This document shows, piece after piece, positions 1 through 14,412 of a DNA stretch of 64,000 bases. This stretch comes from Escherichia coli (lineage in GTDB: Bacteria > Pseudomonadota > Gammaproteobacteria > Enterobacterales > Enterobacteriaceae): assembly GCF_016026235.1 (NCBI RefSeq), contig NZ_CP065613.1; one strand, written 5' to 3'. Below the pieces are notes generated by a model. The model searched no databases, was not told where the DNA came from, and saw only the letters and a list, made by a program, of their open reading frames with translations. A program made the translations under genes and the position numbers. The stretch's first letter is position 1, and the number at the start of each line of letters is the position of its first letter.

Positions 1-5564
<5,564 letters not shown>

Positions 5565-9349: not shown

Positions 9350-9350
<1 letters not shown>

Positions 9351-12300
9351 TACCATTTCACCGTCATCGACAAAAACCCTGCCGTCTGGGCAAAATCATC
9401 ACTCCCTTTCTGCCACGCCACGCTGCCGCGCAGGGACACTCGCTGACTGATATTGCCCGTGACTCCCACTTTTATTTCACCCCGTCGCTTCACCGCATCG
9501 TCACTGATAGTGCTGCCATCTTCTTCAATTTCCGTCGCATGGGGATCGTGATAATAATTCAGATCTAATGTTGGTGTGACACCAACCGCGGTACGCCATT
9601 CGCTGTGTAAACCCAGCCGCGTCTGAATATCATCCCCCTGCGATTGTGACACGCGCGCATGGTTAGCGGCGGTAAAATCATCCTGCTGCACGCCCTGATA
9701 AATCACCTGCGCCTGCGGTTCAATCACCACACCACGCCCCGGTAACCACTGATACCCGGCTTCCAGCGAGGCGATAATCCCCGACGAGTGGTAATGATCT
9801 GTGCCATCGTCTTGTTCGGAAACATCATTGTTAAACCACGCGTATTGCAGCCAGCTATCCAGCCAGGCCCCCTGCTTCTGATTACCGTGCTGATACCAGC
9901 TTGAGGTCAGCCCAACGGCATAACCGTGGTTCTGGTTATCGGCGCGAGTTCCGGTCATACTCGAGCGGCTGTCGCCCTGGTTATCGCTGTAGCCACCTAC
10001 AATCCCAAGCATCCACTCGCCATCATCGCCCCAGCGCCCGCTAAACAGGTCACCGCTAAGCTGCACCGTAGAAGTGTCTTCCTGCTGAGCCAGTTGCCCT
10101 GCCGCCGTGTAATGATAACGTCCGCCGATAACACGTAAATTCAGCGTCTGACCATCGCCACCAGCGTGATCGCGTCGCTCCATCATAAACGCCTGATTTG
10201 CCGCCCGCAGGTTATTGAGATAACCGCCAACTTTGGCATTCAGCACCGGCTGGTAAGCAGGCGTAGGGGCCGGGTCGGGGGTTGGGTCAGGATCCGGCGT
10301 GGGATCAGGATCGGGAGTCGGGTCTGGCTCAGGTGGCGATGGCGGCGTTACTTCTTGCGATCGCAGATACCAGTCGTTGTTATCTTCCACTAGCGTGTAG
10401 TCATACGCTCCCATGTTGACGTAGCCACTGCCAGCCAGACTGAACTGTGCATTGTTTTGAAACTGCGTGGGATCAGCTGCGAAATCAACCACTTTAATGC
10501 CTGTCGATGTCGGCTCACCAATCCCTGTAATGGAGTTAACCACCACAGTTGTGTTGCCAGCAGTATTACCGTTCATCACCAATTGATCGCTTACCGAGTC
10601 ATCGCCGTTTAATTCGCTGTCGAACAGTAGCGTACCGCCGCCGGTATAATCACCGTTTACCGTCAGCGTATCGCCAGCGACGCCATTTTGCAGGCTAACC
10701 GCACCGGACGTATTGGTCAGATCACCATTAACCGTCACGTCAGCAAGATAGGTCAGGCTGTCAGTTTCAAGGTTGGTATTAAGCTCGCCTGTCAACGTCA
10801 CGCCATCGGTAGCATTTACCAGCGTCCCATCGCCGTTAAATAGTGAGGCATTAAGGGCGGCGGAAGTATCCTGCCCGGTCAGACGCAAAACCGTGCCATC
10901 GCTGATGTCGATAGTGCCGCTGGAAGTAGCATCAATTGACTGAATATCCTGATCCGCGCCAGTAACGAACGTTGCCCCATCACCAACCCACAGTGACGAA
11001 GCATAAGGAAAGATATCCGCAACATCGCCTTTCAGGGTGCCTTCTTCGACACGTACCGCCGACTGCGTTGTACCGCTGGCGGTCAGCTCCAGCGTACCCG
11101 CCCCCGTTTTAGTAAATGTGCTACCCTCATCCTGATGCTGCCCGCTGCTGTCAGCCATCAGTGCGCCCCACTGCGTGTCTACCCCCGCATCAACTGCCAC
11201 TTCACCGTCGGCGCGCATTTCAATATCACGCCCATGCTCAGTCGGCGTAGAGCGAGTATCGACATTGGCAGTAATCTCCATCACGCTTTCTTGTTGCTTA
11301 TCGGTAAAGATAACCTGGCGGTTATAGTGGGTATCTCCAAGCTGCGAGTTGTCGCTCACCATCAGCGTACCGGAGGCGATTTGTGTTGTGCCCAAATAAC
11401 TATTATTGTTTGCCAGACTTACCTGCCCGTCGCTCGCATCGACCACCACGTAGACGCCATCTTTCCCGTCGCCGCCGATATGCAAATTGTCGCCACCTGC
11501 AAGATCTACCACATCCTGACTGCCGATAACCGTTCCGCTGCTGCCACTGACTTCAAGGCCATCATTGTATGATGTGCCGCTCTGCCAGGTGGAGAAATCA
11601 GAGAGATCGAGCATACCGCCGTTTAACACGATCGACTGCGGATCGTCCTGGAGAGCGGCAAGATCTGCCGCGTCGCCTTCCAGCGAAAGCACCGCACCAG
11701 CATCCACCACTATATCGCCGGTCAGCGCCATCGACTGCGCCCCCGCCAGCACATAGCTGCCGTTTTGCGCAATGGTGAGCTGACCAGCACCTTCGATGGT
11801 GCCAGCAAAACTGCCTTGATTAACAGTAACATTGCCACCAGCATCGATATTTAAAGTGCCATTCTGAAAGCCCGTCAATGAGTGCACAAAGGTTTGTTGG
11901 GTGGAGCCAACATTTAGCTCTGCCTGATTCTGGTACTTATCAATACTCCCTATCGTCAGACCGTAGCAGTCTTGCGGATCGTCCTGGCAATGAGTATCGC
12001 CGACATTCATCAGGGAGTTGCTGCGGCCCAAGGTAACTTCACCGTTTTCAATCTGCATCTCACCAGTAAAGTCATTGTTATCTGCATTAAGTACCAGATC
12101 GCCGGAACCTGTTTTGGTGATTAACCCAGTACCAGCAATAGAGTCAACAGCTCCGTCATTCTCTGTATTGCCAATAACCAGCGTTTTTCCGTCGGCAATA
12201 TCAAAGGTAACTTCACTTAAGCCGAGATACATAAAGCCACCCGCCGCAGAGGAAGGACCATCTCCATAGCCTGCTGCGCTATTGTTCTCATCGACTAACA

Positions 12301-13102
12301 CGCCTCCGTTCTGGCTGTAGTTGTCATCAACAGAAATATCAATAAGATAGGGAGCCGTCGCGCTATTGGTATATATCGCCCCGCCATAACCTTCGGCAGT
12401 GTTATTTGTAAAGGCAGTGTTATTTATTATCATATAACCTGAAGGATGCTTGCTGTCGCTATTATTATCTGTGACATCGATTGCGCCGCCATCGCCATCA
12501 CTGTAATTTGTTGATGTATATGCCTGGTTATTGTTAAAAACATCATCACTTAAATAGATATCATTATTGATGGTATAAATTGCACCACCTTTGCCGTCAT
12601 TAGCGATGTTATTGCGAAACACGGCGTTAGTGACACGTAAATCGATGGCACCGGTATCGTTAGTACCAGAAGAATAGATTGCGCCACCATAGCCGCCTGC
12701 GACGTTACCAGAAAAAATAACATCCGTAAGATTCAGCGTTGAGTTTTCTTTAGCAAATATTGCCCCGCCGTTATTATATTCTCCTGAAACGGTGTTATTG
12801 GCAAACAGAGTCATTCCAGTTTCATTTTCTGGTGATAATGTAAATTCCGCTCCTTGTTGCAAAAATACGGCCCCACCGCTGGCATTATTGGTCATATCCG
12901 AAAAAACCAGCCATTGCCCATCGGCGATACTCCAGACCTGCGTAATGCCTGAAAGGCTTTGCCTGCTGGCGTGACAACTCGCTTTGATATCATATCCCTG
13001 GCATAAATCAATGGCCGCCGCGACACCGTTAGCAGAGAAAAGAGATGCAATCATTGACGGGAGTAGAGATAAATACTCCTTGCGTAGAAAGATAATCCGC
13101 AT
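9350..13102 (-). CDS. yfaL: AIDA-I type autotransporter adhesin YfaL
   Basis: 1250-aa ORF with a passenger domain of repeated GGAIY/GNT motifs, a Pro-Thr-Asp linker and a C-terminal beta-barrel ending in W. Confidence 0.93.
10264..10345 (-). repeat. tandem PT/PD-encoding repeat inside yfaL
   Basis: DNA gggtcgggggttgggtcaggatccggcgtgggatcaggatcgggagtcgggtctgg... encodes PPSPPEPDPTPDPDPTPDPDPTPDPAPTP. Confidence 0.7.
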
Positions 13103-13149
13103 ATTAATCTGACCATCATTTTATATAAGACGGCGGTAATGACTCCAAC

Positions 13150-13653
13150 TTACTGATAGTGTTTTATGTTCAGATAATGCCCGATGACCTTGTCATGCAG
13201 CTCCACCGATTTTGAGAACGACAGTGACTTCCGTCCCAGCCTTGCCAGATGTTGTCTCAGATTCAGATTATGTCGCTCAATGCGCTGAGTGTAACGCTTG
13301 CTGATAACGTGCAGCTTTCCCTTCAGGCGTGATTCATACAGCGGCCAGCCATCCGTCATCCATACCACGACCTCAAAGGCCGACAGCAGGCTCAGAAGAC
13401 GCTCCAGTGTGGCCAGAGTGCGTTCACCGAAGACGTGCGCCACAACCGTCCTCCGTATCCTGTCATACGCGTAAAACAGCCAGCGCTGACGTGATTTAGC
13501 ACCGACGTAGCCCCACTGTTCGTCCATTTCAGCGCAGACAATCACATCACTGCCCGGTTGTATGCGCGAGGTTACCGACTGCGGCCTGAGTTTTTTAAGT
13601 GACGTAAAACCGTGTTGAGGCCAACGCCCATAATGCGTGCACTGGCGCGACAT
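13150..13653 (-). CDS. insB: IS1 InsB frame (expressed as InsAB' transposase by -1 frameshift)
   Basis: 167-aa ORF ...[58 protein letters not shown]...; overlaps insA in the -1 frame. Confidence 0.9.
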
Positions 13654-13847
13654 CCGACGCCATTCATGGCCATATCAATGATTTTCTGGTGCGTACCGGG
13701 CTGAGAGGCGGTGTAAGTGAACTGTAGTTGCCATGTTTTACGGCAATGAGAGCAGAGATAGCGCTGATGTCCGGCAGTGCTTTTGCCGTTACGCACCACG
13801 CCTTCAGTAGCGGAGCAGGAAGGACATCTGATGGAAATGGAAGCCAC
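13572..13847 (-). CDS. insA: IS1 protein InsA
   Basis: 91 aa [43 protein letters not shown]...; zinc-finger CxxC..CxxC; differs at several residues from the K-12 IS1 InsA as I recall it; A6C slippery site ttaaaaaac (13588-13596, minus strand) near its 3' end. Confidence 0.93.
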
Positions 13848-14412
13848 GCAAGCACCTTAAAATCACCATCATACACTAAATCAGTAAGTTGGCAGCATTA
13901 CCTAAGACGGCATATTTAAACGCATTATACAATATGGGTTATCTTTCTTTTGTAAATTGTCCAACCCGATACAATAGCTATTTTGTTATTATTTGATGAA
14001 TAGTATCAGTGCGTCATAATTCAAGTTAATAACCTTAAGGGATATCAGTTATATTTAAACTAAATTAAAGTAATGAATAATTTTCTTATAATATAAGCTA
14101 AATTAACAAAATGGCTTCGCATTTAACAATAACCGAATAGAAAACAACCATTTCGACATCAACAATCGCTTACATTCGCTTATATATTGACCACAACTGA
14201 TACATCAGATTATGTGATGACTCGTGCTTAGATCAATTTTTGCAATCATTAGCAAAAAGATTAATAAACCATCTATATCAATTTATCCAACCTATTCTGC
14301 CGTTCAAGAAATCGCCGAACAGTTATTTTTAACAAATTTTTCTCTTCCCATTGACTTTCCCGGACACCTTGTCTGACCTAAGGTGCGCGAAAGCCACTTT
14401 TTCCTTCCTGAG

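Follow-up and report, generated by a model that had tools for sequence, protein, structure and literature searches.

Does the proline-rich repeat in the adhesin gene yfaL change in length between strains of Escherichia coli, and does the DNA that encodes it make such a change likely? The window analysed here, a stretch of 64,000 nucleotides of E. coli DNA (contig NZ_CP065613.1), carries a yfaL gene in which a first-pass annotation had noticed a tandem linker, had described its DNA as near-perfect repeats prone to slipped-strand expansion and contraction, and had suggested a variable locus in view of an IS1 element just upstream. We find that the tract does vary in length between strains, in steps of 6, 12 and 18 bp among complete E. 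coli genomes, and that the copy present in the window is a degenerate repeat at the DNA level.

The yfaL (ehaC) coding sequence occupies positions 9350–13102 of the minus strand, on which all yfaL features below are read, and encodes 1250 amino acids, as established from the ORF translation, Pfam and the RefSeq annotation of the syntenic gene. The orthologous genes of strains 88-3493 and K-12 lie in the same order, ubiG-yfaL-ypaB-nrdA (RefSeq names). Compared with K-12 yfaL, the window gene shows 145 mismatches and 0 gaps over 3,753 bp. Strain 88-3493, the nearest match to the tract, is identical around it, yet differs at 85 sites across the gene, and yfaL as a whole is a mosaic gene.

Judged by its domains, YfaL/EhaC is an AIDA-I-type (type Va) autotransporter adhesin, with an N-terminus, MRIIFLRKEYLSLLPSMIASLFSANGVAA, that looks like an extended signal peptide. 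Its passenger and autochaperone regions carry Pfam matches to AC_1 (PF18883), Pertactin (PF03212), PATR (PF12951) and Chlam_PMP (PF02415). More specifically, the AC_1 domain spans residues 794–904 (10391–10723; E 4e-18), and a 12-stranded beta-barrel translocator spans residues 989–1228 (9419–10138; PF03797, E 1.9e-34), the latter also recovered as barrel strands in the AlphaFold model. Between them lies a predicted alpha-helix that would plug the barrel (residues 956–970, 10193–10237; query residues 176–190 of the model). The closest solved relative of the C-terminal 470 residues is the junction-barrel unit of AIDA-I (PDB 4MEE, E 1e-37), with which both parts align, the AC_1 domain with 4MEE residues 29–137 and the helix and barrel with the barrel unit from its start. 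Only about 11 residues separate the two aligned blocks in AIDA-I, compared with about 40 in YfaL; measured against AIDA-I, the proline-rich tract is thus inserted sequence.

This tract adjoins the AC_1 domain on one side and the plug helix directly on the other, and forms a low-complexity Pro-X spacer of residues 920–948 (10259–10345, PPSPPEPDPTPDPDPTPDPDPTPDPAPTP). Its translation, PPSPP-EPDPTP-DPDPTP-DPDPTP-DPAPTP, consists of PPSPP followed by four hexapeptide units of the form (D/E)P(D/A)PTP in tandem. Since 16 of the 32 prolines of YfaL fall within these 29 residues, at every second position, the peptide repeat far exceeds what chance would give. The linker peptide first noticed is thus real, and its end at 10345 was placed correctly; the start at 10264 was 5 nt short. 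In the AlphaFold model (mean pLDDT 84.5), strands extend to query residue 139 and the helix and barrel follow from residue 176, with the spacer modelled as unstructured in between: query residues ~140–170 have no secondary structure and a pLDDT of 53–58, a low value that denotes the lack of a predicted fold and says nothing for an extended stalk. From its position outside the barrel, the spacer is probably surface-exposed. Neither the spacer nor its polymorphism was described in any paper among the full texts searched.

At the DNA level, the four units are gagccagacccgactccc (EPDPTP, 10313–10330), gatcctgatcccacgccg (DPDPTP, 10295–10312), gatcctgacccaaccccc (DPDPTP, 10277–10294) and gacccggcccctacgcct (DPAPTP, 10259–10276). 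The description as near-perfect repeats fails here: the 18-bp units are identical at only 12–14 of 18 positions, with third codon positions agreeing in 0–2 of 6 cases, and no exact repeat within the tract is longer than the 8-bp GATCCTGA, the one exact stretch shared by units 2 and 3. Neither Tandem Repeats Finder (minimum score 30) nor a second repeat search (seed 6) reported anything at the window tract. Its self-identity at a lag of 18 is 0.704, whereas 5000 shuffles of synonymous codons with the peptide held constant give an expectation of 0.757 ± 0.036; the peptide alone thus accounts for the full periodicity seen in the DNA. The ggatc[a/c]gg variants that had drawn attention do occur on the plus strand, as ggatccgg, ggatcagg and gatcggg, and strings of the ggatccgg type are the reverse complement of Asp-Pro and Thr-Pro codon pairs. 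We dropped a clustering of GATC (Dam) sites as a feature of the tract: Asp-Pro codon pairs yield 3 such sites in 20 bp and 4 in 70 bp, and 259 overlapping 100-bp segments of the window hold at least four. A longer direct repeat of 10 bp, GATCCCACGC, has its first copy at 10465–10474 and its second at 10297–10306, within unit 2, and an in-frame deletion of 168 bp in strain VTB97022v has these two copies as its exact endpoints.

To measure length across the species, we drew three systematic samples of 60 each from the 5,419 complete E. coli genomes with the region. Among these 180 genomes, 119 (~66%) have the length of the window, which thus carries the modal tract; 40 (22%) are shorter by 18 bp, 10 are longer by 6 bp and 6 are shorter by 24 bp, and classes of −12, +18 and −36 bp occur once each. 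One further allele, from outside the samples, adds a class of +24 bp. The single repeat number that would have spoken against variation is clearly not what is found: the tract spans 17–37 residues across E. coli, with a variable number of units. Every indel examined maps within the Pro-X tract, and each length class differs from the window by a multiple of 6 bp, in frame and inside the ORF. Residue changes concentrate in the first unit (E/D) and the last (A/E/D/I). Distant homologues have linkers of 10–50 residues in the corresponding position; their sequences vary, and most are rich in proline.

Copy-number change is directly visible in a common family of alleles, the 'DPIP' family, in which units share identical DNA. 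Tandem Repeats Finder counts 2.1 copies of its 18-bp unit, CCTGACCCAACACCCGAT, at 100% identity in strain 1919D3, and 3.1 in YZLc4-1. More specifically, the exact unit exists at one, two and three copies on yfaL genes that differ at 2–9 bases per 3.7 kb: strains 90-1 (one copy) and RM11911 (three copies) differ at 2 positions across the 3.7-kb gene, and 1919D3 (two copies) and YZLc4-1 (three copies) at 5 across the whole gene, compared with 100–150 sites between any of these genes and those of K-12 and the window. A synthetic one-copy allele is matched at 100% by the natural genome 90-1, and a synthetic three-copy allele by YZLc4-1 and OkiPb01681. One-copy forms occur on three backgrounds (a cct unit, a ccg unit and a PPLPP variant), each with a two-copy counterpart. 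Because the one-, two- and three-copy forms sit on nearly identical genes, the comparison shows recent gain and loss of the exact unit in this family, as slippage or unequal exchange would predict. About 97% of the family nevertheless keeps two copies, and at most three exact copies were seen. Turnover of other units was also found: unit 2 is exactly duplicated in strain 35, and a 12-bp unit stands at three copies in strain 1105.

In the family to which the alleles of K-12 and the window belong, synonymous differences scramble the units, and length is largely kept. The K-12-type allele, with its length preserved, is at least 99% identical in 1,934 genomes, many laboratory derivatives among them. 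The longest repeats of the K-12 allele measure 11 bp, and the deletion that they would predict was absent from all genomes searched; four genomes matched the prediction at 95–99%, and the one examined, UTME-3, lacks unit 1 through another deletion, of 18 bp, between GATCC repeats. The duplication variant of the K-12 family was found in two records that agree in length and coordinates and probably represent one genome. Together with at most a handful of candidates, this genome makes up the variable members among ~1,900–2,400, compared with ~32 in ~1,200 genomes of the exact-repeat family. The codon-scrambled family thus appears to be about ten times less variable, a rough figure, being taken from raw genome counts that ignore kinship. 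The suggested proneness to slippage therefore needs to be divided: the codon-scrambled tract of the window is too degenerate for it, whereas it would apply to the exact-18-bp-unit alleles found elsewhere.

Taken together, we consider it probable that the tract is an unstructured, proline-rich spacer in which only the Pro-X alternation is constrained, and in which units are gained and lost by slippage or unequal exchange. The spacer would run from the passenger's beta-helix, at its autochaperone end, to the helix inside the outer-membrane barrel, probably in a polyproline-II-like, extended conformation. Because selection would act on the alternating Pro-X character alone, in-frame gain or loss of two, four or six residues would be tolerated. 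Such changes would arise by replication slippage or by unequal exchange between short direct repeats, readily where units share identical DNA, as with the exact 18-bp unit, and rarely where synonymous differences scramble them, as in the K-12 family and the window allele. The outcome would be a slow, lineage-structured polymorphism of 17–37 residues, or roughly 50–115 Å if fully extended. Spacer length may then alter the stand-off of the passenger from the barrel, and with it perhaps adhesion, but it cannot switch the gene on and off. Slippage itself we infer from the alleles.

In a different account of the variation, the length alleles would be ancient, homologous recombination would have moved them between backgrounds, and diversifying selection by immunity or phages would maintain them in an exposed linear epitope, with no ongoing slippage and with the repeat structure incidental. 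We regard this as unlikely for the variation as a whole, even though several observations point its way. The −12, −24 and +6 classes lie on divergent backgrounds, residue changes gather at the two end units, and the R1/R2 regions of Bordetella pertactin likewise vary between alleles on a slow time scale (PMC8931430). Since yfaL is mosaic, some length alleles common to different backgrounds could indeed reflect recombination instead of repeated slippage. However, shuffling of old alleles leaves unexplained both the one-, two- and three-copy forms on genes 2–9 bases apart and the natural alleles that exactly match the synthetic unit-deletion and unit-duplication constructs.

The comparison with pertactin also helps to place the spacer of YfaL. 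R1 (GGxxP) and R2 (PQP) are short Pro-rich repeats in the exposed part of a classical autotransporter, loosely structured and differing in copy number between alleles and species (PMC8931430), much as unit number in YfaL differs between strains. Unlike the Pro-Asp/Pro-Thr units of YfaL, which follow the autochaperone and stand directly before the barrel helix, they form loops of the beta-helix passenger, and R1 has been tied to vaccine-era antigenic drift, in contrast to the YfaL tract, which has no known immune role. The same architectural position is taken by the proline-rich domain of TibA from enterotoxigenic E. coli (residues 627–677): in this AIDA-I-type autotransporter, too, an additional segment separates the junction/autochaperone region from the membrane-embedded domain (PMC3835316). 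The likeness to TibA is one of position, the segment of ~50 residues having a different sequence in a different protein. In kind, the YfaL tract is a polymorphic spacer of an ordinary sort, comparable to pertactin R1/R2 or the TibA domain.

Far less probable is that the tract acts as a contingency locus, that is, a hypermutable simple-sequence repeat whose frequent slippage varies stalk length or switches expression within an infection, which would take the first-pass suggestion to its strongest version. The tetranucleotide or homopolymer tracts of Neisseria and Haemophilus share the proposed mechanism, strand slippage at tandem repeats, and length variants of yfaL do exist, some of them very recent (a 36-bp difference between genes two SNPs apart). 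Those contingency tracts are, however, long and perfect, and either lie within a promoter or have a unit length not divisible by three, so that slippage switches expression. The YfaL tract has units of 6, 12 or 18 bp and changes in length only; as each unit is a whole number of codons, slippage leaves the reading frame intact, nor does the tract set a promoter spacing. Long, near-perfect tandem DNA is missing from the window tract, and elsewhere the limit of three exact copies is far below the number found in typical contingency tracts. High-frequency variation within clones is, indirectly, made unlikely by the length-preserving K-12-type allele in its 1,934 genomes, and the constancy of two copies in most of the exact-repeat family argues the same way. 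One out-of-frame variant was found, GPEC60-12-649, in which a three-copy allele has lost 11 bp and is annotated as frameshifted, but a single assembly shows it, and a sequencing error may be the cause. The intact variants, in frame and mostly tied to lineages, point to a slow length polymorphism and not to phase variation.

An artefact of assembly or sequencing in a repetitive, GC-rich (71%) stretch is scarcely credible as the source of the variation: hundreds of Shigella sonnei draft contigs do end in or beside the tract, a gap of 250 Ns spans it in one scaffold, one genome differs by 1 bp and another has the 11-bp loss, yet all other differences are multiples of 6 bp, the inspected full-length genes are annotated as intact (except OkiPb01681, with an internal stop), many complete genomes, produced independently by different laboratories, share the same alleles, and the tract, at 111 bp or less, is far below sequencing-read length. 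An IS insertion in the S. sonnei tract was considered for the contig ends and rejected, as the 250-N gap is about the native length; the break is a coverage or assembly gap. Separately, S. sonnei yfaL contains an actual IS near residue 303, with an end that we take to be IS2-like from its terminus.

The IS1 element reported just upstream is present, 32 bp from the ATG. It measures 768 bp (13135–13902, minus strand), has insA and insB reading toward yfaL (InsA/InsB Pfam matches) and terminal inverted repeats (GGTAATGACTCC...GGCAGCATTACC), and is flanked by a 9-bp target-site duplication, TAAGACGGC, at 13126–13134 and 13903–13911. The suggestion that IS1 and tract together mark a variable locus holds in part. 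The insertion is a separate, strain-specific event unrelated to the tract, absent from strains 88-3493 and K-12, and its junction was found at >97% identity in no complete E. coli genome of the collection. The locus does show recurrent insertion: 18 of 5,426 genomes have IS1 at a junction of this type, and at least three independent insertions hit the same few bases 32–38 bp upstream of the ATG. A promoter scan across the IS1-yfaL junction gave no hybrid promoter spanning it.

The YfaL/EhaC spacer is documented as length-polymorphic, at 17–37 residues, a finding of modest importance that calls for no new mechanism. It bears on typing and on the reading of yfaL 'variants' in genome surveys, with the caution that short-read assemblies often break at the GC-rich tract, and on the use of the C-terminal unit of YfaL as a surface-display scaffold, for which PMC9289746 cites examples. 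More tentatively, and with low confidence, two states of the spacer may coexist, one scrambled and length-stable, the other homogenised and length-mutable, next to IS1 as a recurrent changer of yfaL expression. If the two states are true, the choice of synonymous codons would determine how readily adhesin stand-off can evolve, perhaps in keeping with the thickness of O-antigen or capsule. In K-12 studies, the biofilm phenotype of yfaL came to light once a constitutive promoter had been inserted to drive the gene (PMC3764049), and recurrent IS1 insertion upstream could alter the expression of this adhesin. The two allele families themselves offer a clean natural illustration: units come and go where the repeats are exact, and stay fixed where the codons are scrambled, although the Pro-X peptides are very similar.

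The yfaL gene lies on the minus strand of the window at 9350..13102 and, according to the ORF list and its translation, encodes a protein of 1250 residues. It is flanked by ubiG and nrdA, a site where RefSeq names the gene of other E. coli 'AIDA-I family autotransporter adhesin YfaL/EhaC'. Pfam places Chlam_PMP and PATR repeats and a Pertactin match in the passenger, an Autochaperone type 1 domain at residues 794-904 and an Autotransporter beta-domain at residues 989-1228. The Pro-X peptide PPSPPEPDPTPDPDPTPDPDPTPDPAPTP spans residues 920-948 (window 10259..10345); the first-pass annotation identified the peptide correctly but set its start 5 nt short, at 10264-10345. Half of the protein's prolines (16/32) fall inside this 29-residue tract, strictly at every other position, and the peptide repeat is real, beyond chance.

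To place the tract structurally, the C-terminal 470 residues of YfaL were compared with the AIDA-I junction-plus-barrel structure 4MEE. They match in two blocks (query 28-136 on chain 29-137, and query 177-464 on chain 149-463), leaving about 40 YfaL residues opposite about 11 of AIDA-I. In an AlphaFold model built from a 14-sequence alignment (mean pLDDT 84.5, pTM 0.81), beta-strands extend up to query residue 139, residues 140-168 lack secondary structure (pLDDT 53-58), and a helix at 176-190 precedes the barrel. Together, alignment and model identify the tract as a spacer between the last autochaperone strand and the barrel helix that occupies the pore, just outside the outer membrane; as modeled, this Pro-X segment at the passenger-barrel junction is unstructured. 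In homologues of about 30% identity, the equivalent place is filled by segments of 10-50 residues, mostly proline-rich (PDPT, PDPV, PEPQ, PGPG etc.) and without conserved sequence. One subgroup of distant homologues (proteins P0100, P0113 and P0120) has a conserved cysteine pair in the equivalent linker, VPDPC.ADPTLP.C, a hint that their version of the spacer is stapled by a disulphide.

At the DNA level, the tract comprises four 18-bp units, gagccagacccgactccc, gatcctgatcccacgccg, gatcctgacccaaccccc and gacccggcccctacgcct. In pairwise comparison they agree at 12-14 of 18 bases, and third codon positions at only 0-2 of 6; their synonymous sites are fully scrambled, and exact repeats reach 8 bp at most. 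Tandem Repeats Finder (TRF), run at its lowest score threshold, reported no repeat at the tract, and a repeat search of the window with a 6-bp seed found nothing there. When the peptide was held fixed and codons were redrawn 5000 times from yfaL's own usage, the expected lag-18 self-identity was 0.757 +/- 0.036, against 0.704 observed. Since the observed value does not exceed the shuffle, the plus-strand ggatc[a/c]gg periodicity merely represents reverse-complemented Asp-Pro and Thr-Pro codon pairs. The tract had been described as near-perfect DNA repeats, a description that these unit identities, the empty repeat searches and a periodicity no stronger than the peptide imposes contradict.

Tract length was surveyed with a 400-bp query around the tract. 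Of the 5,426 complete E. coli genomes, 5,419 contain it, with one match each. Records were sampled at even intervals three times, 60 per sample and each sample ranked against a different allele; this gave the following lengths relative to the window: 0 in 119/180 records, -18 bp in 40/180, +6 in 10/180, -24 in 6/180, and -12, +18 and -36 in 1/180 each; one further record (1/180) is the large VTB97022v deletion. Strain 1105, tallied in the 0 class, has a 37-residue (+24 bp) tract in its fetched sequence. In all fetched representatives of every length class, the insertion or deletion falls within the Pro-X tract. K-12 has PPSPP(DPDPTP)3DPEPTP; with lengths again relative to the window, EC556 ends in ...DPAPDPTP (+2 aa), AST215 reads PPSPPDPDPDPTPDPDPTPDPEPTP (-4), 1919D3 PPSPPDPDPDPTPDPDPTPDPIP (-6) and THO-008 PPSPPDPDPTPDPTPDPEPTP (-8), while strain 35 has an additional DPDPTP (+6) and strain 1105 has (DPTP)3 (+8). 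Repeat number thus differs between strains, as had been anticipated, with several length classes in the 180 sampled records rather than one shared by every allele, and lengths of 17 to 37 residues are tolerated.

Variant lengths change in multiples of 6 bp, with two odd assemblies as the only exceptions: GPEC60-12-649, with an 11-bp loss within a 3-copy spacer and a frameshifted annotation (positions 380-520 of its fetched locus, L022), and one further genome whose tract is off by 1 bp. The tract is therefore unable to work as an on/off switch. A contingency-locus reading of the window sequence fails the defining tests: there is no long perfect repeat, and the frame cannot shift.

Unit changes are seen in the common 'DPIP' (-18) allele, found in about 22% of genomes. 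This allele contains the exact tandem repeat CCTGACCCAACACCCGAT (2.1 copies, 100% identity, TRF score 76), and its 216-bp query matched 656 genomes at 99% identity or more and 544 at 95-99%. Hypothetical 1-copy and 3-copy alleles were constructed in silico and used as search queries. Across 198 bp, strain 90-1 is 100% identical to the 1-copy construct, and about 21 more genomes carry a 1-copy form; YZLc4-1 and OkiPb01681 are likewise 100% identical to the 3-copy construct across 234 bp, with about 8 more genomes carrying it. Over the whole gene (3.7 kb), 90-1 (1x) and RM11911 (3x) differ by 2 mismatches, 1919D3 (2x) and YZLc4-1 (3x) by 5, and 90-1 and 1919D3 by 8, versus 100-150 between any of these four and K-12 or the window. 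Units of 6, 12 and 18 bp have been gained and lost locally. Furthermore, 1-copy forms occur on three backgrounds (a cct-starting unit, a ccg-starting unit and a PPLPP variant), each with a 2-copy counterpart, which points to recurrent events. Other events, too, are bounded by short direct repeats. In VTB97022v (locus L007), 168 bp were deleted in frame between two copies of GATCCCACGC, a 10-bp direct repeat located in the window at 10297-10306 (unit 2) and 10465-10474 (autochaperone domain); lost with them are the 43 residues that directly precede the spacer and half of the spacer itself.

Length is stable in the allele family to which the window belongs. The K-12-type allele, equal to the window's in length and in degree of scrambling, occurs in 1,934 genomes at 99% identity or more across 216 bp. 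The deletion predicted between its longest (11-bp) repeat was found in no genome searched; four genomes fell in the 95-99% band of that query, of which UTME-3 was examined and has an 18-bp deletion, having lost unit 1 between two GATCC direct repeats. A duplication on this background was seen in one genome, appearing as two records of identical length. With a handful of variants in about 2,000 K-12-type genomes against about 32 in about 1,200 of the exact-repeat family, the latter is roughly tenfold more variable, a figure that ignores kinship.

An IS1 element lies just upstream of yfaL, as first noted: 768 bp at 13135-13902, 32 bp from the ATG, its insA and insB genes directed toward yfaL, and with a 9-bp duplication, TAAGACGGC (13126-13911 including duplications). 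The window holds no other IS1 copy, and the element is missing in strains 88-3493 and K-12. Comparable junctions occur in only 18 of 5,426 genomes, none more than 97% identical to the window. The HS-01 element occupies the same nucleotide and orientation, yet the IS1 copies are just 92.8% identical (locus L014, 1555-1625), and that of 23CRST009 lies 6 bp further away (locus L015, 1555-1635). These insertions are independent, having occurred at least three times within 6 bp, and the region 32-38 bp from the ATG looks like a hot spot. The insertions have no relation to the spacer. The K-12 yfaL phenotype has been studied with an inserted constitutive promoter (PMC3764049).

Other variation affects yfaL as well. 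The window gene (9350-13102) and that of 88-3493 (locus L001, 5246-8998) are identical over 400 bp at the spacer and show 85 differences gene-wide; 2014C-3011, with a quite different spacer allele, is about equally close to the window (87 sites). This mosaic pattern suggests intragenic recombination. The gene also has in-frame length differences beyond the spacer: it measures 3,759 bp in APEC E18006 and a Nissle derivative despite a window-length spacer, the EC1 CDS is 3,714 bp, and in 2014C-3011 a 3-bp indel lies near alignment column 3081. Pseudogene annotations in some complete genomes (GPEC60-12-649, and OkiPb01681 (L018) and 23CRST009 (L015), both with internal stops) represent either true decay or assembly errors. 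In Shigella sonnei drafts, hundreds of yfaL fragments stop at variable points within the spacer or shortly ahead of it, or else begin within it (locus L023, 1-20; proteins P0012, P0023-P0119), and in one scaffold the spot is taken up by a 250-N gap of native length (locus L026, 1913-2162), which suggests short-read coverage dropout at a 71% GC tract, not insertion. The S. sonnei frame is broken near residue 303 by an insertion-sequence end, ...GGGGGCCAGTCTA (L026, 1-87), presumably an IS2 terminus; yfaL is therefore a pseudogene in this species, and intact in the window.

Slippage and unequal exchange are established behaviours of tandem repeats, and the tract probably changes in this way, by slippage during replication or by unequal exchange between short direct repeats. 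Of the earlier proposal of a slippage-variable stalk, the length change between strains stands, while the near-perfect repeat in the window allele does not. A literature search of limited coverage found no paper describing YfaL tract polymorphism. The closest analogues are the proline-rich R1/R2 repeat regions of pertactin, which differ in copy number from allele to allele and change slowly (PMC8931430), and the 'additional proline-rich domain' of TibA (PMC3835316), at the same position as the YfaL tract. The YfaL spacer polymorphism is a familiar kind of phenomenon. The tract is probably extended and polyproline-II-like; at about 3.1 Å per residue, the 17-37 residues would reach about 50-115 Å, and tract length may set the stand-off of the passenger from the membrane.
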